64,000 nt of DNA from Naegleria gruberi. Taxonomy: Eukaryota. The notes beneath the pieces are model-generated. The model ran no database searches. It saw nothing but the letters and a program-made list of their open reading frames with translations, and was not told the origin of the DNA. Each line of letters starts with the position of its first letter. Position 1 is the stretch's first letter. The stretch is from NCBI GenBank assembly GCA_000004985.1, contig GG738846.1; one strand, written 5' to 3'. Position numbers and translations under genes: made by a program. This document shows, piece by piece, positions 1,737 through 63,420 of the stretch.

Positions 1737-4107
1737 TTATTCATCTGAATCCAGTTTTCTCTTTTTTTCTTGATCTGATGGAGATTTTGGTTTTCTCTTC
1801 TTTTCACCATCTTTCTTTACAGTTTTTCGTTGCATGGCTTCTCTATTTTGTTTCTTTTCCATTTCTGCTCTGCTCTTACTTCTACACCAAAAAGGTTCTG
1901 ATCTACAAACTGGTCTTTGTGAATCAGTTTCAACTATCTGAATGAAACTAATCTTCTTATTGAGTGCAGAGTTTGGAGAGGTATTTCCAAAGCCAAGACT
2001 CATGCTCACTTCTTTAATTGGAGGGAGTTTGACCTTATAGTGATGATCACGTCTCACAGAGACACAAACATCAAATGGTTCATCCGAACTATTTGTTGAT
2101 TTGTTGTTATTCTTTGAGACATCTTCTGTGAATTGAATAATTGAGTTCTCTGATAATAGCTCCATACAAATATCTGGAGTGTTCATAATATTTGTTGTAG
2201 AGAGATCACTTTCCTTTGATAATCCCCCAGCAAGTCCTGTTAAATAGTGAGCACTTCTCATTTCAATAGAATAATTGCCAATGAAGAGATTCATCATGTT
2301 TTGATCGAAAATTGAAATGTCAGCAATAATAGCATCACTACTAAAGAGTGAAGATTTTTCAAAAGCACAAGGTCTAATTCTCAATTTTAAAGTATCATTA
2401 ACAAATACTGAAAGTCTAGTTGGTTTAGCACTCTTATTAACTGTAAATCCCATTGGATCACAAACCATACTGAGAGGTGCCACTTGTTGAGAATCTGAGC
2501 CAGTTGATTCTTCAGCTGAAGAAGAAGTAGATACATCTAATTTACCAAAAAGCCACTTGGAAATGATACAACGAAGTGTAATAGAGTTTGGTCCAGTTAT
2601 TAGAGATTTCAAGTCTTCTTTTGGAAGTACAGCCTTTGATAACAGGGCACATAAACATCTCTCGTGAGGTGTTAATGCAATACCATCAAAATCTGCCTTT
2701 ACAATTGTAACAATTGAATTATCAGAACTGTGAATAAAGTAATCGAATGTTGGTGAAACTTCTCTTGAAGCACTCTCTGCCAAATATTTACCACCTGTAT
2801 TACCGCCTCTTCCTTGACCACCACGTTCTTTTGCTTCTCTTTTTCTTTTCCTCAGTAAAAGAAACTTGTGTGGATGGTTCCATTGTCTCATTATTGATGG
2901 ATAGAGAGGAGGTATTTGAATCAACTTTTTCAGGTTTTACAATGACATTGAATGATTTCTCTTCCTTTTTAAAATCAAAAGAAAGTTTTTCACAAATATC
3001 AACATTTGGATCAATACTTCCAATGATATCATCCAATTCTTGAAAGATGGAAGGTGACAAATTAGACTCCCTACTAAAACCACTGTACTGAGGTTGTTGA
3101 CTATCGGAGAATGTTGCATCATTTGTTGATATATGACTATTACCATTAATTAATGAATCATGTTGAAACGAATAGTTAGTGGAGGTATTATTATTTTGAA
3201 CTGTGCTAGTATTATTGTTTGCTACGTTGAGATGGTTCATTGAGGATAAGGTTTGGACAGTTGTTGGTCTTTGTTTGAGCATGTTTTCCAACATGAAAAG
3301 CCATGGCTTGGCAACATCTTCCATCTCTTGATGTAAATTATGAGATGATTGACTTGTCCCCATTAACATTAATTCACTCAGCATACTTGTTGGTTGAATA
3401 TTTGTTTGATTACTATTATTGATAGAGTTCGTGTAGGGCTGTGGAGTACTACTCATCAATAAATTATTGCTACTAATAGCACCATTGTGGTTCATTGAAG
3501 GCATGGGTTGTTGTTGTTGAGGAGGAGGAGTAGCAGTATTATTAGTTACATTGGTGGCTGTCAATGAAGATAGTACAGAAAGAAGACTTGGCGGTTGAAC
3601 AGAGTTGTTGACTACAACCATTGAAGTTGAATTATTGGATGGTATCATACTTGTGCCATGATTATACAGGGTTTGTTGGTGGTTAGGTATATTGTTATTA
3701 TTATTATTATTGGGTGTAGTCATGTTCATTAGAATATTCTGACTCAAAGCTTGATTCATTAAAACCAATTGGTTGTACAATAATTGTTGGTGGAGAAGAG
3801 ATTCATTCGTGATACTTGGAGTATTGGTATGAGTTGTAATACCACCACTACCAGCAAGAATAGGTTGGTGGACACTTTGAGTGGAACATTGAATAGGGTT
3901 GGTATTAATTATTGGTTGCGTAAAAGTACTATTATTTGAAGGTGGGTGAATGTGGTTGGATGAATAGTTTTGAATGTTATTGGTGATGGTGGATGGAAGA
4001 TGTTGTTGCTGAGGGGATGCAATAGATGCATTATTGGTGACTAGATTATTGTTACCAAGGAGAGTTTCAAAAAGTTGTTGTTGGTGGTGGTTGTACATTA
4101 TGTTCAA
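1737..4107 (-). CDS. Q/N/S/T-rich nuclear protein, probably a transcription-factor-like gene. It is built from two long ORFs (2800..4107 and 1737..2924) that overlap in different frames and are presumably joined by a very short intron or a 1-nt frame correction.
   Basis: The upstream ORF (435 aa) is poly-N/poly-Q rich and ends in a basic NLS-like stretch KKKRSKRTWWSRKRR. The downstream ORF (395 aa, no ATG) continues with a conserved-looking globular region (SPTFDYFIHSSDNSIVTIVKADFDGIALTP...) and a basic C-terminal tail. Neither ORF alone is a credible gene. Confidence 0.5.
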
Positions 4108-13929: not shown

Positions 13930-15453
13930 ATGATACAATGGCATCCATTAAAATCTATGATAGATAAAAACATCTCACAAATTGAACAAAAGAGACACGA
14001 CATAAATAATCAAATAGAAATTGACAGCTCCGATGAGACTGATGAAAATTCTTTGGGTACTCCTCTATTCGGAAATGTTCTCGTAGACTTTTTACTGATG
14101 ACTAACAATCAAAAAAATGTTTATGACGAATTTATATTAATGCTAAAGAAGCCCACACTACTGAATGAAGGTCTGGGAGATTATATTTTTATTCCATTCA
14201 TTTTTACTTTAGGTTTTAAATATCAGGAGATTATTATCTACTCCATTATTGAATTATTTTGTAAATTTAGGAAAAAATTAATTATTCAATTAATTGAAGA
14301 CTTTTTAAACTTCATGTCTCAAAGACCAAAAATTGATGCTTTGAAACAATTATTTAGAAAATTATGTTACAAAATTAATGATACAACTTTACTTGTAAAG
14401 TTTGATACGTATGAAAATATTAAAATAGGGAAATCAGAAGAACAATTAAAAGAGTTAGACATTTTTGGATTGTACAAAACTAAAACTATGAAAAGAAATA
14501 GTACCATGATGGAAGCAAGTGATCACCAACAGAAAACAACTCCTGAAGTAGAGTCAACTCTTCCAGAGCCATCACCAAAGAAATCTAAATTGATTGAGGA
14601 GGCTATTCCTCATACATCAATAGAATTATCATCAGACCAAAGAAAGGATATTTTGAAACTGAAGAAGCTTATTGAAAAAGCATCTAATCAAAAATCGATC
14701 AACATTCAATCAATACTATCAATTTTGAATAGTGCTCTCTGTCTTAAACAAATGGAAATGATATTTGAAGAATTGTCAATAGATAATCTCAATGATGGAT
14801 TGCTATTTCACATTATACAAGGTCTTTTTTCAAAAAGTGGACTAACAACTAATAATAACCATATTGACACATGTGATCAATGCTCCTCTATTATACAGCA
14901 TTTAATTCAACCAAAATTGATTAATATGAAGCAAAAGGCCTCTAGACATTTATTTTCAAGCATTCAACAAGTTTGTTGTAATCAAAAATTTAGTAATATG
15001 ATTATTGAACTAATAATTCTCAACCTTTTAAGAGAAAAATCATTATCTGTAGATCAAATTGAGATAATTACTAGAATATTAGATAAAATAATTGATGTTG
15101 AAGGGAAGGGGTATTTGTTCAAACTGATTATTGAAAATATTTCCAACAAACAAATCAAGTGGAATGAAGAAACAACCATTAATATTCTAAATAGGGTTAT
15201 GGAAACAAAAAATTTAATATCAAAAATTGATATTAATTTACTGGAGCAACTCATTACAGAATTTGAAGAGATTATTCCCCAATATTCGAAATCTTTAAAG
15301 TTTGCTCTTTTAGTTTCTAATTTTTTAACAATAGTTGGGCAAACACATATCATAAAGTCTCACTACCCATCAATCAAAGATATTATTGGACAACTAGACA
15401 ATAAGATGAAAGAGAATATTGAGAAAAAGTTTGAAAATTTTCAAACAAAGTGA
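13930..15453 (+). CDS. Hypothetical alpha-helical protein of 507 aa.
   Basis: A long ORF with an ATG in an A-rich context (aaaaaaaATG). Leu/Ile-rich helical repeats. No homolog recognised. Confidence 0.5.
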   Translation: MIQWHPLKSMIDKNISQIEQKRHDINNQIEIDSSDETDENSLGTPLFGNVLVDFLLMTNNQKNVYDEFILMLKKPTLLNEGLGDYIFIPFIFTLGFKYQEIIIYSIIELFCKFRKKLIIQLIEDFLNFMSQRPKIDALKQLFRKLCYKINDTTLLVKFDTYENIKIGKSEEQLKELDIFGLYKTKTMKRNSTMMEASDHQQKTTPEVESTLPEPSPKKSKLIEEAIPHTSIELSSDQRKDILKLKKLIEKASNQKSINIQSILSILNSALCLKQMEMIFEELSIDNLNDGLLFHIIQGLFSKSGLTTNNNHIDTCDQCSSIIQHLIQPKLINMKQKASRHLFSSIQQVCCNQKFSNMIIELIILNLLREKSLSVDQIEIITRILDKIIDVEGKGYLFKLIIENISNKQIKWNEETTINILNRVMETKNLISKIDINLLEQLITEFEEIIPQYSKSLKFALLVSNFLTIVGQTHIIKSHYPSIKDIIGQLDNKMKENIEKKFENFQTK

Positions 15454-15506: not shown

Positions 15507-18500
15507 ATGGTACGTCTTTTGCATTTTAGCTTGTCTGATTTAAACCTCATACAATACGTTGATAAATATTGTATCCATTATTAATTGATCCGATCATTTT
15601 AGAAACAACTCTTCACTGTTACTCAAGAAACAAACGGCAGAGGACCTGTTGTTTTTAGCTGGCAGAAGAGTGGTAACTACCTTGCTTGTGTAGGTTCCTA
15701 CAGAAGAGTACATATTTTCGACAGGCAAGGAAATTTATATCATCAAATATCCTTAGAAGATTCTGGAAAAGTTATTGCTTTGGACTGGGATTATAGTGAT
15801 GAAACTCTTGCCATAATGCAAGAAGGTTCAAGTAAGGTACCTCTCTTTCATATTAATACAAAAAAGGAGGAAAATATTGAAACAAGTATGAAAGAGTTGA
15901 GTTTTATGAGGTGGGCCATTGCTGGACCTTACTTGGCTATCGGAAGTGTAAAAGGAACATTGCTAATCTACAATAAGAAAATTAGCAAGTACGTCCCTAT
16001 CAAGGGTAAACATACAAAAAAGATTACAACAGGTTCTTGGAATGCTCAAAATGTTCTTGCTCTTGGTTCTGAAGATATGCAAATAACTATCAGTGATATT
16101 AATGGTGACAATATCAAACAAAAACCAGCCAAATCTGAACCAAAAACAATGGAATTTTTGAGGGTAAAGAAGAGAAATTCAAAGGATACAACTGTTGCTG
16201 CAATAGTAGGAGGAAATTTTTGGATGTATGATTATGAAGATGAAACAGAACCGAAACCAACAGAACTTGGATTTAGTGATGATTATGGTAAAATGGTTTG
16301 CTTTAAATCATTTGGTGACGGATATTTGCTCCTTGGTTTCGATAAGGGTTATGTTGTGATTGCCTCAACACATGCTGAAGAAATTGGTAATGAAGTTAAT
16401 TCTTGTAAAGTCCATGATTCTGAATTGAAGAATATTACCTATTGTGATGCTTTGAAGAAGGGTGCCTCAATAGGAGAAAATTGTGTCAAAGTATTTGATT
16501 TATCAGATTTAGCAACATTTGATACAAACACTGTAGATAGATATGAATTAGACAATGAATATGGAGCTCTGAATAAGGTACAGTGGACAGAAGATGGACA
16601 AATATTGACAGTGTCCTCAAACAATGGTAATTTGTACAATTTTTTGACCAGTATTCCAGCATTGAACGACAACCATGGTAAAAATGTATTAATGTTAGTT
16701 TCTCTCAGAGAACTGATGATTAAGGATGAAGTTAATGAAAAAGTAGTTGCCAGGTTTTCAATTGATATTGAACCAAGTTTTGTGGCACTTGGTCCAGAAC
16801 ATGTTGCTGTTGGAATGAATAATAGAGTTTGGTATTATAGAGTTGAAAATAGTTCTGCAACATTAATATCCACAAGAGAATATTTAGGAACAGTTGAAAA
16901 AGTATTTGTTGGATTCGATTACGCTGCTGTATTGTCAGGTGGTAAGATTACGCTTCATCTTATTGAGAATACAGAAGATGAAAAATGGAAAGGAAGAGAA
17001 GAAAAACACTTTCCTGAAAAGGATGATGGGTCAGTTATTACAACGTTAACTATGGCTCCAGATTTCCTTATCTATGGAACATCTAGAGGCACAATATGTT
17101 ACTTTTCTCTGGATGATTGGTCAACAGTGAATGAGTTTAGACATGATGTTGGTATTTCTTCTGTATTTACTAATATTATTGGTACTAGATTGGTATTTAT
17201 TGATGAAACAAATGCAGGATTTTTATATAGTCCTGTGGATGATTCACTTGTGGGAATTGAGTCTTTCCCTAGCTCTGTTGATAAGGTGTTGTGGGATCAG
17301 GCAGATCAAAATGTATTCGTTGTTTGCGATAGTAAGAAGTTCACAACATATGTTTATAGTCACACAACAAGATGGGGTCCAAAAGTGTTCAGTGTTAAAT
17401 TAGATAGTGACACACCAACAAGAACAATTAGACCAGAAGGATTCATGCCAATATTTTTAAATAATGGAAAAGTTTGCTGCCAAATGAAAAATGGTTCAAT
17501 AGCCCACCTTATCTTGGCTTCTCATTCTGATTATGATTTGAAAACATTTGAAGATAAGAAGAGAGCATTTAACCAAGCAATTTCCTTGCTTAGATTAGAG
17601 GACGCCTGGGCTATTGCTCTCGATTTGAATCAAGAGGTTTTTTGGAATAGATTGAAGGATGTAGCTGTTGACAATTTGGAATTGGAATTAGCCATGAAGG
17701 TTTATAGATTGAAAGGAAACTCATCAATGGTTATGGCACTTAACGAGCTGATAAAATTAGATGAAATTAATTTGATAATTGGAAACCTGGCCATGATATC
17801 TGGTGATTTTACAGATGCAGAGTCAAAATTCCTTCAATCAACGCAACCAATCAAAGCTTTGGAAATGAGAAGGGATTTAATGAATTGGGATAGAGCTCTT
17901 CAACTTGCTCAAAATCTTGATCCCAACCAAATACCTGTAATTTCGAGGGAATACGCCAATCAGTTGGAACTTAAAGGAGAATATCAAAGAGCATACGATT
18001 TATATCAAAGAGCTGTATTAGACCCTAACCCAGAAAATAGTTCCCACAATCAAATATGTAATGAAGGTCTAACTAGAATAACAATCAGATTAGGTGATCT
18101 CAGAAAAGGATTCGAATTGGCAATGAAGAGTAAGAATAAGAAGCTCTGTAGAGAATGTGCTTTAATATTTGAGGAACTATCTCAGTTCGATGACGCTGCA
18201 GCTCTTTATGAAGAAGCAGAAATGTATGAAAAATCTGCAGAAGTGTATATTCAAAATAAGAGCTACACAAAGGTAACAAACTTGATGAAATCAAAGAATA
18301 TTATGAATCCTAGACTTCATCTCCAATTCGCCAAAGCAAAGGAATTAGAAGGAAAATATGAAGAGGCAGCAAATTCTTACGAAAAAGCAGGTGATATCAA
18401 CAGTGTTATTAATATTAATTTGAGATATTTGAATAATATTCCAAAGGCTATTGATCTGGTAAAGAAAACCAAATCAACTGATGGAGCCAATATGATTGCC

Positions 18501-19679
18501 AGCTATTGTAAAGAAAAAGGAAATTACAAGTCATCAATTGAATTCTTGATAATGGCTGAAAAAGTTGATGAAGCATTTGAAATTGCAAAGGCTCATGATG
18601 AAATGGACACTTATGCTAAAATTGTTGGTGAAGGAGCAGACAAGTCTGAATACTTGAGCATTGCTAAGTATTATGAGTCGAAAGTTGCCCTTGACAGAGC
18701 TGCTGATTATTATCTGAAATGTGAAGAGTACACTACCGCTCTTACTCTCTACATTCAGTGTTCATCTAGACTGAAACAAGACTCTAAAGAAATGGAAAAT
18801 GTTATTGACAAGGCAATTGATGTTGTTGCTGCTGCAAAGAATGACAATCTAACTCACTCCTTGATTGACTTCTTGATGGGTCAAGTTGATAATGTTCCAA
18901 AAGATCCAAAACATGTTTTCAGGCTCTATATGGCTCTTGGTAACTTTAAACAAGCTGCAAGTACCGCTCTAGTTATTGCCAAACAAGAACAAGAAATTGG
19001 TAATTATCAAATTGCACATTCAATCCTCTTTGATACAGTAAGACAATTAGAGAAAAAAGGTCATCACGTGCAATTTGAACTGAGAGAAAGTTTGAATTTA
19101 CTCCACTCCTACTTGATTGTAAAATACCTTTCGAAAATGCAAGAACAAACCATTGCCTCAAGAATGTTACTCCGTATTACTAAGAATATCAGCAAATTCC
19201 CTCATCACATTGTACCAATTTTAACTTCTTCAGTTTTGCTTTGTTACAGATCTGGTCTTAAAAAATCAGCTTTTGAAAATGCCACAGTTCTTGTTCGACC
19301 AGAGCATCAAAATTTGATACCAGCCGAAAAGAAAAAGACAATAGTACAACTTGTAAGAAAGCGAAAGGCTTATGAAGACGAACCTGAACCAACTTCAGGA
19401 TGCCCAATTTGTTCTGCTCCACTTTCAGACTCCTCATTATACTGTGAGCATTGTATGAATAATGTACCAATGTGTATTTCTTCTGGTTTACACATGGTTT
19501 TAGATGACTGGTGTCAATGTCCTCAATGTCAATTCTCCTCAAGACATTCTCACTTTATCAAAATGGTTGACAGCTTGGGCAATAAGTGTCCAATGTGTGC
19601 TCAGACAGTAAATCCAGAAAATGTAAACAAATTAACAATTGAACAAGCAAAGATTGTTGTAGACAAATATCTAAAATAA
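15507..19679 (+). CDS. WDR19: Intraflagellar transport protein 144 (IFT-A subunit WDR19). Exon 1 is the ATG alone (15507..15509). Intron 15510..15602 is 93 nt (GTACGT...TTTTAG). Exon 2 is 15603..19679.
   Basis: The spliced N-terminus MKQLFTVTQETNGRGPVVFSWQKSGNYLACVG... matches human WDR19 ([33 protein letters not shown]). Internal matches include EPSFVALGPEHVAVGMNNRVWYY and ISKFPHHIVPILTSSVLLCYRSGLKKSAF. The C-terminal Cys-rich zinc-finger-like tail is conserved. The protein is 1359 aa against 1342 aa in human. Confidence 0.85.
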
Positions 19680-33879: not shown

Positions 33880-34905
33880 ATGGAATCTGATCTTTTTGTT
33901 AGTTATATTGCCTTGTTAACCCACGCAGTTATACCAATTATTGTGGGTAGTTTCCAATCACTGGTGCCATCACAAACCGAATCTCTCGAGGTTAAAGATG
34001 CTGCCATGTTTCCAGTGATCGGATCATGCGTTTTATTCAGCTTGTATCTTTGTTTCAAATTTTTAAGTGATGTCTGGGTCAATTTCGTGATGAGTGCCTA
34101 CTTTACATTTTTAGGAATTGGTGCTATTGCAACAGCTTTACATCCAGTTTTGAGTGCCATTATGCCACATCACATGACTGAAAAGAGCAAGGAGGGTGCT
34201 GAAAAGTATCGTTACAAGATTACTATCCCAGTTGTTAACTGGAATTTTGAATTCTCTCTTGTTGATATTATTGGAGGTGTTATTGGAAGTATTGTTGGCA
34301 TTTTCTATATTATCACTAAACATTGGATCGCTAACAATCTCTTTGGTGAATGCTTTTCCATGGTCTCTATTCAATTGATTCAATTAGGATCTTACAAGAT
34401 TGGATCTGTACTTTTGATTGGATTATTCTTTTATGATATTTTCTGGGTTTTCGGAACTGATGTTATGGTTACAGTTGCAAAGAAATTCGATGCACCAATC
34501 AAGGTTGTCTGGCCAAAGGGTGCTGGTTTCTCTCTTTTGGGTTTAGGTGACATTGTTATTCCTGGTATTTTTGTTGCTCTCATGCTCAGATTTGATTACT
34601 ACCTCTATAAGAAGTACAAAACTGGGGTATTTGCCAAGACTTATTTCATCATTACATTCATCTCTTATGTCATTGGTTTAGTTTTAACAATTGCAGTTTT
34701 GCATATTTTCCGTGCAGGCCAACCAGCTCTTTTGTACATTGTCCCTTGTGTTTTGGGAGGTTCCTTCTTGACTGCTGTCTTTAAAGGACAAGTTAGCGAA
34801 TTGTTGGGCTATCATGATGATAAACTTTTAGAGTTAGAGTATCCAGAGTTGGCTGAAAAGAAGAAGCAAGAACAAGCTGCAGCCAAAGAAGAAAAACAAG
34901 AATAA
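33880..34905 (+). CDS. SPP: Signal peptide peptidase (presenilin-type aspartyl intramembrane protease, HM13-like), intronless.
   Basis: It has the YD motif (FFYDIFWVFGT), the GLGD motif (LLGLGDIVIPG) and the PAL motif (QPALLYIVP). The surrounding sequence is closely similar to human HM13 (RKHWIANNLFG..., VMVTVAKKFDAPIK). Confidence 0.85.
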   Translation: MESDLFVSYIALLTHAVIPIIVGSFQSLVPSQTESLEVKDAAMFPVIGSCVLFSLYLCFKFLSDVWVNFVMSAYFTFLGIGAIATALHPVLSAIMPHHMTEKSKEGAEKYRYKITIPVVNWNFEFSLVDIIGGVIGSIVGIFYIITKHWIANNLFGECFSMVSIQLIQLGSYKIGSVLLIGLFFYDIFWVFGTDVMVTVAKKFDAPIKVVWPKGAGFSLLGLGDIVIPGIFVALMLRFDYYLYKKYKTGVFAKTYFIITFISYVIGLVLTIAVLHIFRAGQPALLYIVPCVLGGSFLTAVFKGQVSELLGYHDDKLLELEYPELAEKKKQEQAAAKEEKQE

Positions 34906-34942: not shown

Positions 34943-37123
34943 ATGCTCCATCATCAACCAGTTGTTCATTCCTCTCATCAACCCTATTATCATCAATCAT
35001 CGGAAAACATAACACCAGAAAGATTAAAATTAAAACAACTGAAACACAGAGTTGCAACACCAAAGCCAGTGATTCATCCCTTTTTTCTATCGAGTCATGA
35101 ACAACAGCATGCACCACCTCCTCCATTCAATCATGATTTCGTGCCATTTGTAAAATATCCTCCAGAATATATGGAACCATATCAAACAGAACCTTATACC
35201 ATATCTACCCCGAACAAGGATCAAAATTATTATTATGTAAATCATCAACCACCACAACCCTTCGATATTCATCCTCATCACTTTGAACAACATTTAGATC
35301 ATCATGAAATGATAATACAACCCTCAAATCCTCCTCAATCATTCAACCATCAACAATTAATAGATGATCAATTGGATGAATTCAATATTGACCAACAATT
35401 TCAATCTGCATTCCCAATTGGCAGTGTTCCAGGAGTGGTAAAACAAGTTCTAGGTAGAGATGATATCCATAGTGAAAAGGAATCAACCCTTAATATTACA
35501 ACTGTAAATAGACCTTTGAGTTTAGATCCTCAACTTAATACACCTTTCAAAAAATTTATTGCAAAGGAGGAAGATTTAAAAATGGGAGAAAAGATTATTC
35601 TAATTGAAGACGAATCTGAGTCATCAGAAATTGAAGACGAATCTGAAGTGTCATCTATTAAATTAGAAGATCCTTCGTTTGTTATTGAACCTGGAAAAGT
35701 TTATGTAATTGACGATTCAGATGATGAAGATGTTACCTCCTCAAATGAGCAAGAGGATCACCAAAGCGATAATACAGATGAACAAAAAGAAGATTCTTAC
35801 GAACAAGAAAACCAAGAGGAAAGGGTGGAATCCGAAGATGAAGAATCATTTCATTTAATATCAGAAAGTATTGTTCACGAACAGACCCTTCCTACCCAAC
35901 CTAAATCACCAGAACATATCAAAAGCAGTCTTGAAATTGATCAGCATAATGCCAGAACCAACTTGTACCATTGGAGTTACGTGTTTCAATACAAACCAAA
36001 GGATGAATTAACTGTTTCTATACTAGGAAAAACTAATATTGATGGAAATAGAAATTTCACCACTTCCCCAATTGTTCATAGATTCAACTCTGATACTGTA
36101 CTTACTCTAAGTGGAACAAAATATGTGCTCACTTCCAGTTTTGATAGTTTGCGAAATCAAGAAAATAGTACTACAGTCAGTGCTGATTTTTTGAAACAAT
36201 TTACTGCTTCTTTGGATGGACCTTTCCCAAAGAATTGGAGAGAACTTATTGAAAAGGAATTTAAACGGTTAGAAGAACCAATATTGGGACCTGTTGAGTC
36301 TTCCAATAATTTCCAAAACGAAAATAATTTTGATTATCAAATAGATGAAACAAATGCAAGCCTCAAACAGGATAATAGCAGCAAAATTGAAGAACCGACC
36401 ACAAAAAAAAAGAGAAACTCAAGAAATAAGATATTTGAGGATCCACCTCAAAAGCCCTCAAAAACCAAAAAAAAAAGAAGAAAGAAATATGATACTAGCT
36501 CTGATGAGGACGAAGATACAGAGTATGCTGAATCACCTCAACCAGAGAATAAGAAAAGAAAGTCTATACAACAAACTCTTTCAAATAGCTTTACAAAGAA
36601 GGCCGATAATTCAATGTCTTTGACTGATGAGCTAAAATCAACAATGCTTGGTTGGAAAAAGAGATCCCATACATCCTCACCTCCAAAAATTCCTCTTGAC
36701 TCTATTAGAGAAATTCATCATGAAACAAACAACGATTTAGAGGATTACAAAATTAATCAACTACGAGAAGAACCACAAAAATACGAGAATAGAATTGATT
36801 ATTTTAAGGAAGACTTCTTTAATGAGATAGGTGGACTTTCGCAAGGAGAAGAGGAGGTAAATGAAAGATACAATGAAATCCAAGACGAGTCAATTTATGA
36901 AGAAAAAGAACCAACACCAAAGAAGAAAACAAAACGAAAGACTAGAAGAAAGACTAGAGAAACTGTAGAAAATTCAAATATTGTAGAGCAAGATCTAGAT
37001 CTTTCCATACCAAAAGTAATTATAGATACCCAGTTCTTTCCAAAAACACGTAAAAAACGTAAAACAAAAACTGTTTCTATGGATACAATACAAAAGGCTT
37101 GGTTTGGTGATTTGGAAGAGTAA
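34943..37123 (+). CDS. Acidic low-complexity protein with a SANTA-like domain (KNL2/MIS18BP1-like), tentative.
   Basis: The central segment LYHWSYVFQYKPKDELTVSILGKTNIDGNRNFTTSPIVHRFNSDTVLTLSGTKYVLTSSF fits the SANTA-domain pattern (W..V......L.V.G......W.SS.I..R.....L.T.SG..Y.L). It is flanked by D/E/S-rich and K-rich tracts. Confidence 0.4.
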   Translation: MLHHQPVVHSSHQPYYHQSSENITPERLKLKQLKHRVATPKPVIHPFFLSSHEQQHAPPPPFNHDFVPFVKYPPEYMEPYQTEPYTISTPNKDQNYYYVNHQPPQPFDIHPHHFEQHLDHHEMIIQPSNPPQSFNHQQLIDDQLDEFNIDQQFQSAFPIGSVPGVVKQVLGRDDIHSEKESTLNITTVNRPLSLDPQLNTPFKKFIAKEEDLKMGEKIILIEDESESSEIEDESEVSSIKLEDPSFVIEPGKVYVIDDSDDEDVTSSNEQEDHQSDNTDEQKEDSYEQENQEERVESEDEESFHLISESIVHEQTLPTQPKSPEHIKSSLEIDQHNARTNLYHWSYVFQYKPKDELTVSILGKTNIDGNRNFTTSPIVHRFNSDTVLTLSGTKYVLTSSFDSLRNQENSTTVSADFLKQFTASLDGPFPKNWRELIEKEFKRLEEPILGPVESSNNFQNENNFDYQIDETNASLKQDNSSKIEEPTTKKKRNSRNKIFEDPPQKPSKTKKKRRKKYDTSSDEDEDTEYAESPQPENKKRKSIQQTLSNSFTKKADNSMSLTDELKSTMLGWKKRSHTSSPPKIPLDSIREIHHETNNDLEDYKINQLREEPQKYENRIDYFKEDFFNEIGGLSQGEEEVNERYNEIQDESIYEEKEPTPKKKTKRKTRRKTRETVENSNIVEQDLDLSIPKVIIDTQFFPKTRKKRKTKTVSMDTIQKAWFGDLEE

Positions 37124-39983: not shown

Positions 39984-41584
39984 TTATTTTCTTGGTTGAA
40001 TTTTTAGTGACATGTTATATAACTCATCTTCTCCTCTTGGTTTGTAAGAATCAATGGCTGCTTGAATTTCTTCTTTTGGAATTATTTCATAGTCACGATC
40101 TTGAAACCTTAATATATTGTACATGATTGCATATTGACTGATTGCTTTGTAAAAATTTAGTTTGCCATCCACAAGTGTTGGGTTACCGTCATCAGCAAAC
40201 AAAAAATCCTTGAGGTAAATCCCAATGTATGGAGTTGCTGGTTCTCCTTCAACAAAGCACTTGTCAGTGGCATCTCTCATACTTTTATAGTTTATATCCT
40301 GAGAACAAAATTTACAAATATCCTCATATTGTTTTTGAGTTTTCTCTTCAAGAAGGCTCCACGTATCGACAAGACGGGAAACTGATGATGTTCCCAATGA
40401 GCTGTAAATTGCCATAATCATATTGAAACTATTCAAATCCTTTAAATGTTCACATGTTTTGATAACTGTTTCAATCATTTTTTTTCTAAACATTGGGTTT
40501 GATTCGCTGACAATTTGAAATACTACATAACTGCTGACCTTATTAAATAATGTTGTTACTGAAATAATATTTGGAGCCATGAATTTTTTCTTCTCCTTAT
40601 TCCAAGATTGACCCAACATTTCAGTGAATTTAATCTTTTTGTAAAGAGAGTGATCCATCGCTGTTAGAGTCTCTGCAAAATCTCTTGCATCCACTTTCAA
40701 TAGGGTCAATCTTTGTTCTAACCTTGTTGAGGATCTCTTGTCCTTTTTTTCTGCCAACTCTTTTTCTCTTTTTTCATCTTCTTGCCAAGGATGTAATCGA
40801 CTGGCATCTTTCATTGCAAGCAGTGTTCTTTTTGCAATAAAAGAAACAGGACTTTCAATCATTCTAGTACTACAAAAGTTAGTAAGTTGCCTTATCATCT
40901 TATCATCAAAATCATAGTAATGATTTTCTACCCACTCTAATATTAATTTTGCTGTAATTATTTGAGCATTTGATTTCAGATCTGTGTGATAATGATATTC
41001 GTCAAGAGATTCATACTGACCAATCGGAACAGTTGCACTCTCGGATGAAGAATTAAGAGGAGGAACATCAAATCTCTCTAATAGTTTCTGGAGAACGAAT
41101 TTAGGTTTAACAAAGCTTCTATAACATAACCAAAATACTTTGACAAAGAATGGCTCAAATCTTGTTTCATCAGTGAGTAAAAGGATTAATCGATTAAGAC
41201 TAATGAATTTTGGTATATTGCCTGGATAGAGTTTGGGGCAAGGTGATTTGGAAAATGTGATAGATTCAGGACATGCCATTGGTTCCTCATTGATCGGGGT
41301 CATTTGTTGGATTGGTAGTGAAAATTGAGAACTAAAAGCTATTATTATAATTATTAATTATTATTCCTCAATTACATACTTTCTTCACGATTGAAAATTA
41401 GTAACTTATCTCCATTCATAAAGTGGATTATTTTCTGAGGTCTGAGAGGGCTTGGTGGTTTTCCATCATATAATTTACTATAATATTCGTTTGCTATTTC
41501 TACACAGTGATGAGCCCTCAACTTGGATTCCTTCAGGCTTAACACAATAGGAGTAAAACCTGATATTCTAATATACAACAACAT
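39984..41584 (-). CDS. Ras guanine-nucleotide exchange factor with REM (RasGEF_N) and CDC25-homology domains. Exons 41380..41584 and 39984..41338, with a 41-nt intron 41339..41379 (GTATGT...AATAG). Further 5' exons are possible.
   Basis: There is a REM-like N-terminal region (KFISLNRLILLLTDETRFEPFF...) and a CDC25-type catalytic region (...FNMIMAIYSSLGTSSVSRL...YKSMRDA...PYIGIYLKDFLFADDGNP...). The intron joins ...LIFNREE to TFSSQFSLPIQQMTPINEEP and fixes the frame offset between the two ORFs. Confidence 0.7.
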
Positions 41585-53289: not shown

Positions 53290-54973
53290 TTATTCATTCT
53301 TCTGCTTTTTGAGATAATTAATTTCTTTTGAATTGGCATGGAAGGAGTTTCGTTTTCTTTTAGAAAAGCTTTGCTCTTCAGATGTTGGAGTGGTTGCATC
53401 ACTATTCGATGCAGTATCACTCTCTTCATTTGGTGGATTGGGCACCAAACGATCAAATAAAGACCATTCAAATAAATCAGATGCCCTTTTACAGAACTCT
53501 ACACCTCTAACACTGTTTCCTCTTGGATCTAGACGAGGAGAAAACAAGCACATTCCCATAACAGAAGGAATAACAATGCATATTGCCCCTGCAACACCAG
53601 ACTTGGCTGGCAACCCAACTGTGCAGGACCAATTACCAGAAAAATCATACATTCCACAAGACAGCTAAATTTGAAATGTTAATACAAAAACATTTGAAAC
53701 ATACCATTAACTGAAGTGCACATTTTACCGTGTCATTTGATACAATTCTATTATTTGTTAGAGGGCAAGTTCCACCGTTTGCCAATGTTGCAGACATTGT
53801 AGCTAAACTGTTAGAATTGACAAGAATGGAACAAATTTGAAAATATAAATCTAGTGTGTCTTCCAATCTAGATTCTTCTGGAAATACATTATTTTCCTGC
53901 ATATAATAAGCAAGAGCAAAATTACGATCTCCTGTTGATTTCTCACTTAGAAAGGTAGCATTATCAAAACCAATTTTACTGCCACCAGCAAATTTGGAAA
54001 ATTTACTGGAAACATATGTAAATCTCTTTGATGGTGACAAGTCTGGTTTTACGAGTGAACATACAGTAATAGCTCCTGCATTAATCATTGGATTGTGTGG
54101 CTTATTTTCATCATCAAGTGTGAAAGCATTGAAACTTCCACCACTTGGTTCAAATCCAACATATTGATGAACATTGTCTGCTCCAATATCTTCACAAACA
54201 ATACAGTAGGTGAAAACTTTTGAGCAAGACTGAATAGTAAAATCAACATCACTATCCCCCAATGAAAAACGTTGACCATCTACTGTACAAATAGCCAATC
54301 CATATAATTCTGGATCCACTTCAGCTAATTGAGGGATATATGTAGCCACATTACCACCTTTGATTTCCTTTGTTTGTTCGAATATTTCTTTAATTTTAGA
54401 ACAAAAGTTAGACCAATCTGGAATTGCCAATCTTCCAGTTAATGCCCTACTGATAATATTTGTATTTTCTCCGACAATATTATAAAAAGCATCAAAATCA
54501 ATTACAACCTTCTTGTACTCATCAGAGTTTTCATCATAATTTCCATTATTAATACCAAGTATAATTTCTTTTATCAAATTTTTCAACTCTGGGTTATTCT
54601 TGGAATCCAATCCTTCTTTTTTGAGAGCCATTTCCAAATCTCCAACAGTAATAAAACCTTGTTTTTTAACATCCAAATCCGAATATAATTTTGAAATTAA
54701 TTTACGTTCTTGTTCAAATTTTGTTTGAATTAAAACATCTGGTGATCTACCAAGACCGTTTAAAGAACCAATCGTTGGTGATGGAACTTCCGAAGATGTT
54801 GATGCATTGAATACAGCATCATAAATTGTTTGTTCGGCCATGGCAGAGTCGTTATCAATTGTTGTTACTGGTGTATTATTGTTTTGAAGGGGATGTGATC
54901 GTGGATGATGAACAAGATGTAATGGAGTATCTGTTTCCTCTGGATAAACAAAAGGGTTTTTACTGTCTTTCAT
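53290..54973 (-). CDS. GLS: Glutaminase (kidney-type GLS family) with an N-terminal EF-hand-like region. Exons 53705..54973 and 53290..53664, with a 40-nt intron 53665..53704 (GTATGT...AATTTAG).
   Basis: The glutaminase core NVHQYVGFEPSGGSFNAFTLDDENKPHNPMINAGAI is present. The intron joins ...KCALQLM to [58 protein letters not shown], which compares with human [58 protein letters not shown]. Confidence 0.8.
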
Positions 54974-55028: not shown

Positions 55029-56661
55029 TTATTTTCTCTTCAGATTAAAATAGGAAAAAATTGGGTTACCAAGAACTGGTTCTTTTGGAATGGTAACTGT
55101 TTGATTTTGAGGTTGATAACCATCCTTTGATACTTGAATAGTAAAGGTTCCAGGAGGTAACAATCTCCAGAAAAATCCATTAGAATTAGAATTAATAATC
55201 TTTGCATTATTAATTACAGTTACATTAGCTCCAATAACTGCATTTCCAATATCATCTGAAACAATACCAACTGCAGAATACTTCAATTGATCCATATAAG
55301 CAATTAGAGCGTCCTTATTTTGATCCCAATATCCATCTAAGTGATCTTCAGGAGCAATATACTCCTCAGTCAACTCTAAAGTAAGTTCATAACAATTAGC
55401 TCCAAAGTAATTATAATCGGCCATGGAATGTCTGAATAAAATTCGAATTAATCTAAAAATGAAAAAGAAAAGCTTACCTAACAACCCACCATTGGGCACC
55501 ATTGGTAATACCTCCTGGGAATCTCTTACTCAAGTGCATAACAGTGTTAGTGTCTGCATAAACTGATGCAACTTGTTTGAAGAAGGTATCATCAGGTGTG
55601 GCAGAATAATTACAATCCTTTGACAAGGCAGTATCGAAAGGATAGTTAGCAACAACTACACCTCCATGTAGATTGGCTGACAAAATAAATGATTCCTTTG
55701 AAATCCAGTTCAAAACTGCAATAGTTTCTGGTTGGAATGGATCATCAGGCTTACCAAAATAAAAGTCTGGGAAGTTTCTATTCAAATCAACACCGTTTGC
55801 ATTTCTTCTTTGTTTAAGCTCATAACCATCAGGGTTCATAGATGGCATAATATAAACATCCATATAATCAAGAATGGAAGTTACTCTTACATCACCAGCA
55901 TTATACAAGTTCAAGAGATATTCAATAAAATAGAGAATTACTTCTCTTCCAACAGTTTCGTTACCGTGCATGTTTGCAATATATTTGAACTTTGGTTTTT
56001 CATATCTCAAGTTTGTATTTGGTCTACCAATAACTTTTGTACCAAAAAGTTTCATAACCCATAATTCTCTTTGTTGGACTGATTGACCAACAGAGAAGAG
56101 TACAGATAAATGAGGATTGGCAGCGTTGAGAGCCTTCAATTTAGCTGTCATTTGCACATAGTCATGATTTGAAAGCAAATTCTTTGCTGCTCTTTTGTCA
56201 AGGGAGGATTTTCTTGTTGTGGTATTGAATAATCTTTTAACAATGATTGGAGTCTTGCTCTTACTTTCTGCATTAATTTCATCAATTTGATGTTCCAATC
56301 TGTGTACTTGATTTTCATTCTTCATTTCAACAATGAACATTCTTTCTTTTTGTAATTGTTGAGCGAGAGATGAAAGAAAGTCATTTCCATTCCCAATTAA
56401 CATCTTGTCGAGTGGTTTTCTAATTCTAATAGAGGCCTTATCAAACATTTTTGCGTGTCTTCCTTCAACAAAAACTTTTTCTAATTCTTGTCTATTTAAT
56501 CCCATTACTAGTACAGAAAATTCAGACAACATTCCTGCACTGCTAGTGCCCGTATGTAATGTTATCTTTGTAGAGGATGAGTGAATTAAAATCATCACGG
56601 TCATCATCATTATTATGCCCTTCATCAGATGCACTGATGAAAATCGTTGTTGTTGTTTCAT
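55029..56661 (-). CDS. M14 zinc carboxypeptidase of the N/E (regulatory) subfamily, with a C-terminal transthyretin-like domain. It has a signal peptide and a pro-region. Exons 55478..56661 and 55029..55431, with an intron 55432..55477 (46 nt). An alternative 25-nt intron uses a nested acceptor.
   Basis: It has the HGNETVGREV zinc-binding motif, ...DVYIMPSMNPDGYE..., and GGITNGAQWW joined to HSMADYNYFGANCYELTLEL (human CPE has [33 protein letters not shown]). Next comes a transthyretin-like domain (GANVTVINNAKIINSNSNGFFWRLLPPGTFTIQVSKDGYQP). Confidence 0.75.
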
Positions 56662-57119
56662 TGGTTCTGTGAAAGAAACGAGAATCTCTCTTTGTTATCC
56701 CGAGTTGTTTATGACGGAGCGGTTTGTTGTTCTTTTTTCTGAGCAATTTGTTTGAAAATTACAATCTAAGCTCTGCTCAGAGCTAGGACTCCACAACAAT
56801 TCGGAAGCAATTACCAAATTATTATTGCTAATGAAATAATTGGAAGCGTGTTTACAAAATTTGGCTCCTTCAGGAGTTAACAACTCCCTTAAAAATCTTG
56901 AACGTTTGTCTCAGTTAATAAAAGAAACAATAAGTTTCCAATGACATTCAATTTTTAATCTTCGTCTGAAAATTATCAAATCCAATAATTGACCAATAGG
57001 ATACCTACATATTAACCAAACAAGTATTGATATTTTGCTTTTTGTTTGCCTTTAAGTTTTTAACAACAGGTTAAATGAATTATTTATTCTATTTAAATTT
57101 TAAATAATTCTATTTAAAA

Positions 57120-60100
57120 ATGCCACCAAGAGAAGCAAGAGGAAATTCCAACCCATCATCTGGCTCTTCTCGATACCACAGATCATTTAAGAATACATCG
57201 GATAATACCGATGAACAACAACATAAACCTTCAAGAGGGAATTATAGAGGGGGATATAGAGGAAACTCTCGTTCAAATTCTTCTTCAAGAACAGAGGAAA
57301 CAAATGACACAAACACACAAAAATCGACTTCTCACAGAGGAGGACACAATACACAAAGAGGACCTTACATACCAAGAAATTCAGAGGATTTATCGGAAGG
57401 TTTACCTAAAACAAGAGTTAAGCCATACAAACCTGGTTTTATTAAAAAACAAAAATCCGAAACACTTCCCAATTTTCAAATAGTAGCAAGAAATGATGAA
57501 GATGAGGAAAGTTCACAAACATCAAATAGGACAAAAAAACAACCATTTAAAAAACCGAATCCAAAAGATTTAGTTTGGGAAAGATCTGCTGAAAGAGATG
57601 ATGAGCAGGCTCCAAAACCTCCAAAACAAACTTTTCAAAAACAACCATTTAAAAAACCGAACCCAAAAGATTTGGTTTGGGAAAGGCCTGCTGAAAGAGA
57701 TGATGAACAGATTCCAAAACAAAAATTAAAGAAACAACCATTTAAAAAACCGAATCCAAAAGATTTGGTTTGGGAAAGGCCTCCCGAAAAGGATAATCAA
57801 AGATTTAAAGAAGGAAAAAATCTACATTTACAAATTTTCAAATAGTAGCAAATAATGACGACAAGGACGAGGAGCAAAATACTCAAAAACCACATAGAAA
57901 GCAACCATTTCAAAAACCAAATCCAAAAGATTTAGTTTGGGAAAGGCCTGCTGAAAGAGATGATGAACAGATTCCAAAACAAACTTTCCAAAAACAACCA
58001 TTTAAAAAACCGAATCCTAAAGATTTGGTTTGGGAAAGACCTGTAGATAAGGATGAGCCAACTCTAACAAATAGAATTGCAAAAAAACAACCATTTAAAA
58101 AACCAAATCCAAAAGATTTAGTTTGGGAAAGGCCTGCTGAGAGAGACGATGAGCAGGCTCCAAAACAAACTTTTCAAAAACAACCATTTAAAAAACCGAA
58201 TCCAAAAGATTTGGTTTGGGAAAGGCCTGCTGAAAGAGATGATGAAGAATCCGAACACTCTCATACACCATCTGGAATTCACAAATATTTAGATGATTTA
58301 TCACATGGCCCAAATATATTTACCCTACCACAAGGATTTTCTGGATTTGGCTCTTACAGAGATTCTAATTTACCAGATAATAATTTATTCGAAATTTCTA
58401 AACCAAAAATTGTAAATATCAACGAGGATGAAGAGGATAATATAATCAAATCTGACGAGAAAGGGGTATTATTTGAGGATGAAGAACAAGACGAAGAGTA
58501 TTATGTAGAAAAAGACCAAACAGACAATGAGCAAGATGAAGAGGATAATCATGACGAGGAAGATCAAGAAGAAGACTATAATAATTTTGTTATTGAAAGA
58601 AAATCTTCCTCATCGTATGATGAAAACGACAGTGAAAGACAAATCCTAACAATTCCCCCTAAAACACATGAAAAGAATGAAAAGGACATTATCTACTCGA
58701 AACTGAAAACTATGGAATCAAAGACAAAAATTTGGGAAAAAAGCTATCCAATCAAGGCTAACTCAATTATTGGTACATGTCAGGACAAATGCCCAAAACA
58801 AGAGATTACCAACAGAGAAAAGGATAACGATCTCAGTTTATTTGAAAAGACAGGAAAGATCATTATAGACGAGCATGGTATTAAGATGTACAAAGCAGAT
58901 CCTAATGCTTGCGTGAAAAAGTATGCCAGATCTGCTGCAGCCGTTCATGCTGATCCTTCACTAATTCGTCCTCCTCTAATACTCAAGAAAACATTGGAAT
59001 ATTTGACCCATAATATTTTAGAACGTAAAGAAGAGTATCATACTATATATTTTTTTATTAGAGACAGAGCTAGAAGTATTATCCAAGACCTAACAATACA
59101 AGACATCAGAGATGAACGAAGTGTAGACTTACATGAAATAATTTCAAGGTTTCACATAATGAGTCATCACTTACTAGCAGATGTAGGAGAAGAATTATCA
59201 GATCCTCATCAAAATCTTGAATTAATGAGCAAATGGCTTAAAAGCTTACAGGAGCTCTATTTTGAATTAAGATCTAATGGAATTGAATGTCCAAATGAGT
59301 CAGAGTTCACTGCTTACTATATACTTGTAAAGATTACTTCAGATCAAGAAGTTGCCAAGTGTTTGAGAAACCTTCCTTCCAAAGTCAGCAAGTCTCCAGA
59401 GGTATTGTTCGCCCTTAAGGTTTACGGAGCATTTTCTACTAAAAATTATGTACGATATTTTGAATTGGTCAAGCAAGCAAGTTACCTAAGTGCATGTCTA
59501 ATGCACATGTATTTTGCACATATCAGAGAAGAAGCTCTCAGAATTATGAATACAGCATTTAATATTAAGGTCACTGATATTTCCAAGGCTGGTAGATATC
59601 CAATATCTAAACTCGTAGATATTTTGGCATTTGAAACTAAAGGAGAGTGCACAGATTTTTGCAAAGCCCACGGTATTTATATTGACGGGGATGATGTATT
59701 ATTCAAATACTCCACGTTCGTAACACCTGACAAGAAAATCAAATCAAAGAGGTCATTGAGGTTGATTGAATCAAAGGTTGCTGGCATTAGATACTCTGAT
59801 CTTGTAAATTTAAATTTTCGGATAGCTCCAGAACCTTCCAAAACACCGCCGAAAGAATTAGAAACTAAAATCAATGAGTCACCTCAGAAAATCGAGATAA
59901 TCAATCCACCAACTCAAGTGCAAATAGTTCCTCCAGCTTCCCAACCAAAACCACCAACACCTGCTCTTATTCAGAGTGCTATTCCAAAGGAAGTAATAAG
60001 AGAACCTGAAACAAAAATACCATTGGTAACTCAGCAACCACCATCTAGGTATGATGTTCCACATGTCAATCCACCCTCCACTTTTGTTCCACCCAAACCA

Positions 60101-62176
60101 ACTACACAAGAAAATAGACCAATCTTTCCTCCAATTGTTTTTAGTCCTTCCCAGATGCCACCTTTTAACATAATCAAGTCACCAAATCCTCCAATTCCAC
60201 CTACTCTAATTCAACCACAACCACCTGTAGCTTTTAAAACTCAATCACATAGAAACGAAATTTCTATTGATCCCTTGATTCCTCAAATCCCAGTCTCCCC
60301 AATTAAACCCCTAGGTCCGACTGAGGAGGAAACCAAAAAAGAACTGAAAAGCAAATATTTTTCATTATTGAAGAAATATGCAGAAAGGAAAAAGAGAATT
60401 CGTGCAAGTAGGAAACAACACATCAGCAATGCAATGGACTTTGTACTCCAAGAAAATATTATGTCAGATGATTATGAAGAAGATCAATCAATGTGCAAAT
60501 ATTACAAACACATATTCAAGAAGAGATATCTCAGCCAATTATACCAACCTCTTGACTTGGCTTCTCTTATCTTTAATTCACCTGTTACTGACAAGATTGA
60601 TACATTTTTCAGCTTTTTTTGGAAACTAATGATAGTACCAGGAACAAACAGCACTCATCTTAATGAATGGATTGCGGCAAAATTTTCTCGCCCAAATAGT
60701 GATGACTATTTGTGTAATTTTATAGTAAACGGTAAGGACGTGGATTCCCTACCAAGACCCAAGAAAAACACAGAACTACATATTTGTGCACGAACCCCCA
60801 AAGACTCAAGGTCATGGAGAGGTACTTCCTCAATAATTTTCATATTGGATAATCCCAACAATACCGATTTACAGACATATTTCTCACTAGAAAAAAAGAG
60901 GTTACACCAACATTTTTCAAATTTAGGCTTATTTAATGATACTCATATCCCTATTCTAATTCTCTTTGATAAGAGCTGGTTTCACAATAGCAGTGAAAAT
61001 ATGCTAAAGGAGCATTTCCTTCACATTATCTATGAAGATTTTAAATGCTTTTCAAATGTGGAATATGTAGGCATTAATTTTACTCACCTACTAAACTTTC
61101 CCTCATCAGAAGAAATTGCTATTTTAAATCAAGTTTTAGAAAATTACACCTTGTGGCTTGCAAATAACTCCTCCGATCCACCTCTTCTCCACACATATTC
61201 TATTAGAGATTTGATAGAAGAAACAACTTTTTCACACATTCGAAAATTGTTGATCGATATTGATCCAAATGCTAGAAATGGTATAACTGTTAAGGATTTG
61301 ATACTTGTATACAATGATGTGTGTGAATCGCTATCCCATCAGACTATTTCAGAGACTGAAAGAATGAGAAAACTAAATTGGCCAGCTCCAGAGTTTGAAA
61401 AGTATTGCGATTGGAACACAGATGAAAATGCAATACTTCAAAAAGAGCTTTTAGGTCAATTATCATTACCAACCATTGATCTAACTCTCTACAACTCTAA
61501 ACATATTGTTGACAATTTGTATAGCTCATGTAAGCAGTATGTGACAACCCTGTATACAAAACGTAAGATTTATCATCCAGCCATTTCCAGTCAATCCATC
61601 AAGCAGTTGGTTAAGGAACTTGTTAACGGTGGTGGATATGCTGCTAGTATCAAAATCTTTGAAATGTTCATTGAGATACATTTAACCTTGCTCTTTGATA
61701 AGGATCCACTTTATAGTTTTGTTTTCACCACAGCAGAATTCAAAAGTATTGCCAATTCAGTTTTGGAGAGGCTCAGATATAGCTCAAACCCATTCATCGA
61801 ATCGTCATTAAGGGCTTCGTATGGGTTAAAAATGTCTCTCAATTCAGACAAGACTAATTTTGAGACTTTTAGAAATCTTAAACGTATTATCAAAGAATCC
61901 ACTCAAGAAAAAAACCAAGATTGTAAGAAGAGAAAACTTGTTACCTATATTGATATTAATCAATGTATAGGGATGCACACCCAATTATCAAACAAAATTA
62001 GTGAGCAAAGAAGTCTATTTTCTCATCTCGAATCAGCCCCATCCGATCTTAGTTACCACTCTATTGTAGATACAGATATGAGTGACACAGTATCCACCAG
62101 TGACAGTTGTCAGTCCTGCATTGATTCCCTCAAATTACTACAAGAAAAACTTGAAATGTATAGAAAGGGTATTTAA
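57120..62176 (+). CDS. SAC3/GANP-family protein (TREX-2 / MCM3AP-like) with an N-terminal 31-aa tandem-repeat region. The reading frame is broken once near 57806-57845. If that is corrected, the ORF is about 1685 aa.
   Basis: The C-terminal half has the SAC3/GANP domain with the diagnostic IGTCQDKCPKQE motif (GTCxDMCPxxE), continuing ...IYFFIRDRARSIIQDLTIQD.... The N-terminal ORF (57120..57845) and the long ORF (58025..62176) carry the same KKQPFKKPNPKDLVWERPAERDDEQxPKQTFQ repeats. The second frame is open from 57809, so the two ORFs are one gene. Confidence 0.65.
57540..58260 (+). repeat. Tandem coding repeat of about 8 units of about 93 nt (31 aa: QKQPFKKPNPKDLVWERPAERDDEQ[A/I]PKQTF) inside the SAC3/GANP gene. 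It is nested in a larger roughly 390-nt duplication (the NFQIVA[R/N]ND... block occurs twice).
   Basis: I read the repeats directly: caaccatttaaaaaaccgaatccaaaagatttggtttgggaaaggcctgctgaaagagatgatga... recurs with a period of about 93 nt. Unit starts are near 57541, 57642, 57734, 57903, 57996, 58090 and 58183. Confidence 0.7.
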
Positions 62177-62184
62177 TAAAGTGC

Positions 62185-63420
62185 TCAGATTTTGAACGTT
62201 TGGTAAATATTTTCCTTATTGAGTTCAGTTAGAGGAGACAATCCACTTGTCATATCAACCGATTTTGTTTGTTTTTGTTTTTCAAATTCTGTCTTTTCTT
62301 TAAGGAAAGCCAATCTTTCTTTTTCTAATTGTTTTTCCTTTTCTTCTAATTTTTCTTCCTTCTTCTTTATGAATTGTTCTCTTTTTTCTAATGCCTTTTC
62401 TTTTTCCTTGAGGATCTTGTAGCGTTGTTTGATATAGGTATCGAAAATATTAAATCTCACAATAGATGTTTCACAAATTTCAACAATGGAAATTCTTTTT
62501 TTTGGCTTCAATTAAATGTAAGAGGTTGGTAGTTGAAACACTATACTTACATCTACACAAATCATTCTATTGATTAATTCAGAAACCTCCTTACTGTAAC
62601 AAGATGGAATTGGATTGAATTTTCCAGCTGCAATCTTCTTTTCAAGTAACACAGCATTTGGAGCTTTAAAAGGAGGCTCCAAGGTGCACAACTCATACAA
62701 AATACATCCCAGAGACCAGATATCACAACTTTCGTCATACCCTTGATCACTCAATTGATCTGACAATAATTCAGGAGGCATATAGTAAGGTGTTCCAAGT
62801 CTTGTGTGAGCAAACTTTGATTGGTCCGATAAAATTCTTGCCAATCCAAAATCACCCAACTTTACATTCAAATCTTTATCCAAGAAAATATTTCCTGGTT
62901 TCAAATCTCTATGAATAACTTTTCCACTCTTTCTTGTGTGACATTCTTTTAATGCACAACAAACTTCGGAAAAGATTTTCAGAACTGTTGCTTCTTCAAT
63001 TTTACCAGATGTTTTCTTAATGGATTGTATAAATTTACCCAAATCTCCACCCTCACAGCACTCCATCAAAATGTACAATTTTCTCTTGTTTTTATCAATG
63101 TACCTATTAAAATATTTAACTATATTCTTGTTTTCCAAATCTTTGAGAATGTTAACCTCTAAATAAATGTATGTTTTTTATCACCCTCAAGTCTCTTACT
63201 TACCAGTGACTATTAATTGCTTTTCCTTCTCCGACATTCGGCCATAATCAATCTCTTTCCACACATATATCCTATGATCCTTCTTGGATTTAACCTTATA
63301 CTTTTTATAGGGATAGAATTATAGTTAAAATTTATGGAAATGATTTAAACCTACCACACTTCCAAAGCTACCATGCCCTAATTGTTCTACAACATCAAAA
63401 TCGGCTAATCCTGTCTCCAT
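62185..63420 (-). CDS. NEK: NIMA-related kinase (NEK2-like). Four exons: 63355..63420, 63204..63300, 62551..63158 and 62185..62505. Introns: 63301..63354 (54 nt), 63159..63203 (45 nt) and 62506..62550 (45 nt).
   Basis: The spliced product METGLADFDVVEQLGHGSFGSV|YKVKSKKDHRIYVWKEIDYGRMSEKEKQLIVT|EVNILKDLENKNIVKYFNRYIDKNKRKLYILMECCEGGDL...HRDLKPGNIFLD...DFGLARIL...GTPYYMPPE... is colinear with human NEK2. After the last intron (in frame, contains a stop) a coiled-coil tail follows (KEKEKALEKREQFIKKKEEKLEEKEKQLEKERLAF), as in the NEK2 leucine-zipper/coiled coil. Confidence 0.75.

Follow-up and report, generated by a model that had tools for sequence, protein, structure and literature searches.

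The window analysed here, a 64-kb stretch of DNA, derives from Naegleria gruberi NEG-M, and two overlapping reading frames on its + strand encode parts of a SAC3/GANP protein. The upstream part, in what we call frame A, extends over positions 57120..57845 (ORF A, 241 aa). It begins with an ATG and an R/G/S-rich N-terminus, continues with a header (H1, KKQKSETLPNFQIVARNDEDEE...) and three repeat units (A1-A3), and ends in ...FKEGKNLHLQIFK, also given as ...DNQRFKEGKNLHLQIFK, followed by a TAG at 57843-45. The downstream part, in frame B, occupies 57809..62176; a TAA at 57806-08 precedes its first residues, RRKKSTFTNFQIVANNDDKDEE..., and no further stop is met until 62174-76, a length of 1455 codons. 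This part comprises a second header (H2), four repeat units (B1-B4), a conserved GFSGFGSY motif at about 58313-58357, an acidic region, the SAC3_GANP domain and a long C-terminal region, and its first ATG (58712..58714) lies 301 codons past the opening of the frame. The zone of overlap, 57806..57845, is bounded by the TAA that limits frame B upstream and by the TAG that ends frame A, so that both frames are open over 57809-57842. A run of six adenines (A6, 57815..57820) lies within this zone. On re-reading of the sequence, the coordinates, the frame ends and the position of the A6 run that had been given in an initial annotation all proved correct.

The product of this locus is 100% identical to XP_002682760.1 (= EFC50016.1 = UniProt D2UZY9), a protein of 1652 aa, and ORF A is identical to residues 1-216 of that protein. 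The SAC3_GANP domain (Pfam PF03399) was detected in the frame-B product with E=1.9e-91 and a score of 306.9 bits against a cutoff of 27, the match covering profile positions 2-287 of 289 and aa 328-625 of the product. The frame-B product also matched fungal SAC3 proteins, and its next relative after itself was the N. lovaniensis ortholog (P0002, 1571 aa), with 36% identity over 79% of the query. SAC3/GANP serves as scaffold in the TREX-2 complex of mRNA export, in which its assembly partners are Thp1/PCID2, Sem1/DSS1, Sus1/ENY2 and centrin. Like yeast Sac3 and human GANP/MCM3AP, the N. gruberi protein is long, has a nearly full PF03399 match and carries a low-complexity N-terminal region before the domain. 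Unlike SAC3/GANP elsewhere, its N-terminal array consists of seven 31-aa KKQPFKKPNPKDLVWERPAERDDEQ units and two degenerate header units. The N. lovaniensis ortholog has no 31-aa repeats, and the array matched no other protein among 1.84 billion representatives (HMMER) and no Pfam family; on these sequence comparisons, the N-terminal array of 31-aa repeats is lineage-specific.

Tandem Repeats Finder and a repeat tool identified seven copies of the 93-nt (31-aa) unit, three in frame A (57532..57819, with starts at 57532, 57634 and 57727) and four in frame B (B1-B4, starting at 57894, 57987, 58080 and 58173). The successive start-to-start spacings are 102, 93, 167, 93, 93 and 93 nt, and only the 167 nt that span the junction of the two frames are not a multiple of three. 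A header repeat (NFQIVA.ND.DEE) occurs at 57462 and again at 57824, the two copies being 362 nt apart, which is 2 mod 3. Because the header recurs, the array can be described as a header followed by units, a structure that is repeated twice.

Do the two frames belong to one gene? Among the repeat units, pN/pS (Nei-Gojobori) was 0.19 for frame A, 0.22 for frame B and 0.21 for comparisons between the two sets, and in the 18-codon core of the repeat, third codon positions account for 7 of the 11 variable columns. The similarly low pN/pS on both sides shows that each half evolved as protein in its own frame. At this base composition, the probability that frame B would be open by chance over the 301 codons before its first ATG is about 8e-11, and the corresponding value for ORF A is about 8e-9. 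Since both halves are constrained and no ATG occurs in frame B over these 301 codons, the two must form a single gene. Upstream of the first frame-B ATG lies a NIFTLPQGFSGFGSY motif whose N. lovaniensis counterpart is NLFNLPAGFSGFGSY. For the part of ORF A that precedes the repeats, the best local alignment with the N. lovaniensis ortholog is collinear and falls on aa 47-169 of P0002, with a score of 76 compared with 53 ± 8.6 for 1000 shuffles (p=0.013); in a BLASTP comparison of ORF A with the same ortholog, the E-value was 1.1, which is not significant alone. An A-over-T skew of +0.3 to +0.5 runs continuously across the junction, and the 5′ intergenic DNA differs in this respect. The initial annotation had assigned the ORFs at 57120..57845 and 58025..62176 to the same gene, and the shared repeats, the equal purifying selection, the missing ATG, the collinearity with N. 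lovaniensis and the conserved GFSGFGSY motif all uphold this assignment. We conclude from these lines of evidence that ORF A and ORF B are a single gene, the N. gruberi ortholog of SAC3/GANP.

The position of the break between the frames can be narrowed by means of the repeats. Because H2 (STFTNFQIV...) is homologous to H1 in frame B, that frame must be in use from 57821-57824 at the latest, and because the tail of unit A3 is read in frame A, the latter must extend to about 57806; the change must therefore fall within 57807..57823, and the alignment places a single frame break in this interval. The A6 run is the sole homopolymer of at least four bases within it. Inserting one A into the run yields an uninterrupted protein of exactly 1685 aa with no stop, in agreement with the figure of about 1685 aa proposed earlier. 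The accompanying proposal that the change lies at the A6 run itself is reasonable, but alignment cannot fix the exact base, because in this A-rich sequence the two copies can be aligned about as well at an offset of 362 as at one of 363. The A6 run is thus the likeliest, though not a proven, site of the missing base.

How might this break have arisen? The origin that we favour is an error of consensus or assembly in the Sanger draft of 2010, by which the reference would be short by one base (3n+1) somewhere in 57807-57823; the A6 run at 57815-57820 is the most likely place, and its true length would be A7. The true product would then be the protein of 1685 aa, reading ...DLVWERPPEKDNQRFKEGKKSTFTNFQIVANNDDKDEEQNTQ..., and the deposited 1652-aa model would restore the frame by means of an invented 98-nt intron, with the loss of 33 residues. 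Sanger consensus errors are uncommon at runs as short as A6, which counts against such an error. An independent copy of the locus was found in none of the searchable collections. A HMMER search with ORF A among 1.84 billion representatives returned XP_002682760.1 only; metagenome contigs gave 0 matches to a degenerate DNA pattern encoding KPNPKDLVWER, a pattern that is found in the units of the window itself; exact-product contig look-ups for ORF A, XP_002682760.1 and a TTG-started ORF B were empty; and exact sequence look-ups for ORF A, the product beginning at the 58712 ATG and the fused 1685-aa protein returned no record. In view of this, the choice between an error and an allele rests on priors, and it is on these that an artefact is favoured over an allele as the origin of the missing base. 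We consider that there is about an even chance that the reference is one base short through a consensus or assembly error.

A genuine allele is a possible, if doubtful, alternative. According to this explanation, a single base has truly been lost in or near the A6 run on the assembled haplotype of NEG-M and the protein is truncated at 241 aa, function being supplied by an intact second allele, or the gene having been newly inactivated in a long-cultured axenic line. Repeat arrays and homopolymers are prone to mutation, and the coding signatures are intact on both sides of the break, as would be expected for a very recent event. All of the evidence against the annotated intron that is described below applies equally to this explanation. 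Naegleria has been described as mainly a heterozygous diploid (PMC9928731), which makes a true frameshift allele credible. Several considerations weigh on the other side: the sequence offers nothing by which an allele could be told from a consensus error; as a rough prior, which is a matter of inference and not of measurement, indel errors in drafts outnumber heterozygous frameshifts in conserved genes; and SAC3/GANP is a core mRNA-export factor, the homozygous loss of which is unlikely. A consensus or assembly error is accordingly retained as the favoured origin of the break.

The public gene model joins the two frames in a different manner. Cutting 57768..57865 (98 nt, or 2 mod 3; GTTTGG...GACAAG) from the window gives XP_002682760.1 residue for residue; this RefSeq intron deletes 33 residues and creates the splice-junction peptide DLDEEQNTQKPHR. 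If the intron were real, with unusual GTTTGG and AAG sites, the RefSeq product of 1652 aa would be the correct protein. The intron has GT-AG ends, its length of 2 mod 3 restores the frame exactly, and it is the shortest of 60 formal solutions. Moreover, the median intron of N. lovaniensis is 80 bp (PMC6125883), so that within the genus a length of 98 nt would not stand out. We compared this model with 14 introns at ORF junctions in the 64-kb window, which are 38-57 nt in length and follow the consensus GTA[AT]G[TC]...YAG, their donors being GTAAGT, GTATGT or GTAAGC and their acceptors TAG or CAG. For one of them, which lies in an M14 carboxypeptidase gene, the conserved motif ...GAQWW-VVR|HSMADYNY... 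provides confirmation. This curated set was used because splice-site matrices obtained by an unsupervised, EM-style derivation over all ORF junctions amounted to noise. The set had first been gathered with the pattern GT[AT][AT]G[TCA]...YAG and is hence partly circular; when any NAG was allowed, at least 11 of the 14 introns still had a YAG, at 38-57 nt, as their first frame-compatible acceptor, a re-test that frees only the acceptor and the length from the bias of the pattern.

By these local standards, the annotated intron is anomalous at each of its parts. First, its donor, GTTTGGGA, scores 0.8 bits, compared with 8.4-11.1 bits for the 14 window introns; relative to the local consensus it lacks A3 and T6, and its score is equalled at 20% of the GT sites in the window, so that it is no better than these random sites. 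Second, its acceptor is an AAG, and 70% of the bases before the AG are purines. Third, its 98 nt are about twice the usual local length, and its T fraction of 0.22 lies below those of all 14 reference introns (0.25-0.54). Fourth, the same donor context (GTTTGG, in GTTTGGGAAAG) is present in 7 of 7 repeat units, where it encodes VWER, and it is necessarily read through in the six other units. Fifth, the interior of the intron has the appearance of coding sequence: its first 39 nt, read in frame A, encode VWERPPEKDNQRF and continue repeat unit A3, and its last 57 nt, read in frame B, encode the conserved STFTNFQIVANNDDK, including a 19-nt NFQIVA-coding block that is identical to the upstream header copy. 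Of the 60 GT-AG pairs by which the frame could be restored, none starts from a consensus donor, all of the donors being equally poor, and no GYAWGY occurs on the + strand over 56552-58921. A U12-type or a GC-AG intron is likewise unsupported, since no matching donor exists. The initial annotation had stated that no plausible intron could join the frames. This was correct to the extent that the 98-nt GT-AG candidate falls short of the local standards for donor, acceptor, length and coding content, but an intron does exist formally, and RefSeq uses it. Because its signals are poor and its interior is conserved and coding, we judge that the annotated intron at 57768..57865 is probably a gene-caller's patch, and a real intron here is unlikely. 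It has been reported that the JGI gene models of N. gruberi often need intron corrections from RNA-seq (bioRxiv 10.64898/2026.08.18.745565), and RNA-seq for N. gruberi exists, comprising 829 M paired reads of 75 bp (Kennard et al. 2025, as cited in bioRxiv 10.64898/2026.08.18.745565).

Another explanation is that the A6 run is correct and that the break is overcome during expression. The run and T57821 together form A_AAA_AAT (57815-57821), a heptamer of the X_XXY_YYZ form whose phase would allow a -1 slip to carry ribosomes from frame A into frame B; eight codons further on there is a zero-frame stop. With programmed -1 frameshifting at A_AAA_AAU, most ribosomes would stop at 57845 and release the 241-aa product, and a fraction would continue to the 1685-aa protein (...KEGKNSTFTNF...). 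The canonical form and phase of the heptamer, the closeness of the stop and the coding signatures kept in both frames are consistent with such a mechanism. In its in-phase heptamer and the zero-frame stop shortly after, the site resembles known -1 frameshifting sites, such as coronavirus U_UUA_AAC with its pseudoknot and A_AAA_AAC of MMTV gag-pro. Unlike those sites, it has no downstream stem-loop, and this A-rich gene contains many heptamers of the kind. The 126 nt that follow the site have an MFE of -8.7 kcal/mol (z=-0.09), and 87 of 200 shuffles fold as well, in a model that does not treat pseudoknots explicitly; a scan against Rfam gave no match other than a sub-threshold, chance miRNA match. 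The gene contains 16 in-phase slippery heptamers, so that one would be expected in the 12-codon overlap by chance with a probability of roughly 0.1. The repeat region has no homolog in the searchable collections with which conservation of the heptamer could be compared, and it would be odd, we reason, for an essential export factor to be made only by way of inefficient slippage. Sites of transcriptional slippage typically have nine or more A or T residues, and the A6 run is too short for this process to be efficient. The earlier suggestion that the run might be a slippage site thus found no positive support, there being no downstream fold beyond those of shuffled sequences and in-phase heptamers being frequent. 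We regard programmed frameshifting at this site as very unlikely, and it is no less improbable that the A6 run is true in both DNA and mRNA and that full-length SAC3/GANP is made by -1 frameshifting without a classical downstream stimulator.

Finally, it is hardly tenable that the locus holds two genes, one for a separate 241-aa protein (ORF A) and one for SAC3, beginning at the 58712 ATG. In favour of two genes, ORF A has a start and a stop codon of its own, and the 1154-aa product from 58712 would retain the SAC3 domain. Against them, the 58712 ATG is preceded by the 301 stop-free codons whose chance probability is given above, a stretch that also holds the conserved GFSGFGSY motif and four repeat units under constraint; an AT-rich intergenic spacer is absent at the junction, and the N. 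lovaniensis ortholog is one chain with both an ORF-A-like N-terminus and the SAC3 domain.

A base missing from the reference, with the intron of the public model as its mask, remains the explanation that we favour for this locus. The break is an ordinary sequence or annotation defect. It resembles a frameshifted gene of a draft assembly that has been masked by a spurious short intron, in that two ORFs abut, a homopolymer lies in their short overlap and a non-consensus GT-AG join deletes conserved residues, and nothing essential distinguishes it from such cases. Its value is mainly one of curation, in that the reference sequence or the model of SAC3/GANP should be corrected. The reference protein XP_002682760.1/EFC50016.1/D2UZY9 probably carries a fictitious intron and is without 33 residues of the repeat array, and the locus provides an example of how automated gene callers hide frameshifts behind non-consensus introns in the N. 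gruberi genome. The biological consequence would be small unless the A6 count is correct. If it is, an essential export factor would have a heterozygous null allele here or, with lower probability, the locus would be a site of recoding; if recoding were true, a 241-aa repeat-only protein and a 1685-aa export scaffold would be made from one gene, a case of cellular recoding in a heterolobosean.

The 31-aa repeat array of the SAC3/GANP protein (57444-58260; motif KKQPFKKPNPKDLVWERPAERDDEQ.PKQTFQ) has a higher-order layout in which a degenerate header unit followed by three or four regular units occurs twice. This repeat appears to be confined to a single N. gruberi protein, SAC3/GANP itself. When ORF A, the upstream part of the gene (57120..57845, + strand), was used as a HMMER query in a full search of 1.84 billion representative proteins, the sole match was the RefSeq protein for this gene (XP_002682760.1), and the repeat had no match in Pfam. 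A word-indexed protein search with the repeat-rich fused N-terminus (420 aa, the two frames joined in silico) returned zero matches despite the presence of a database protein more than 90% identical over the region; with this search tool, low-complexity or repetitive queries can give silent false negatives.

At the 3′ end of the gene (62174-62187), just 8 nt separate the SAC3 stop codon (62174-76, + strand) from the end of a convergent coiled-coil ORF on the - strand (62185..62511), which is apparently the tail of a kinase ORF (62512..63138) with a GTAAGT donor at 62550. SAC3 and this convergent kinase-side gene must have overlapping 3′ UTRs.

Several further pairs of long same-strand ORFs adjoin or overlap in the window with no obvious consensus short intron in between (examples are 13930..15453/15780..19679; 33880..34905/34943..37123; and, on the - strand, 1737..2924/2800..4107). 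These pairs may represent distinct genes or additional frame breaks.

The confident introns of the 64-kb window are uniform and very short (38-57 nt), with a GTA[AT]G[TC] donor and a YAG acceptor; they lie at 334-378, 7701-7745, 8022-8066, 25452-25502, 37954-38001, 39387-39430, 39656-39712, 41339-41379, 43746-43785, 48519-48558, 49118-49155, 49662-49702 and 53665-53704. One intron that we used as a reference belongs to an M14 carboxypeptidase gene on the - strand: removing this clean 46-nt intron (55432-55477, GTAAGC...TTCAG) joins the ORF at 55029..55502 to that at 55474..56661 and rebuilds the conserved WWVVR|HSMADYNY motif. Such uniform short introns provide a useful local yardstick for flagging further doubtful gene models on this scaffold.
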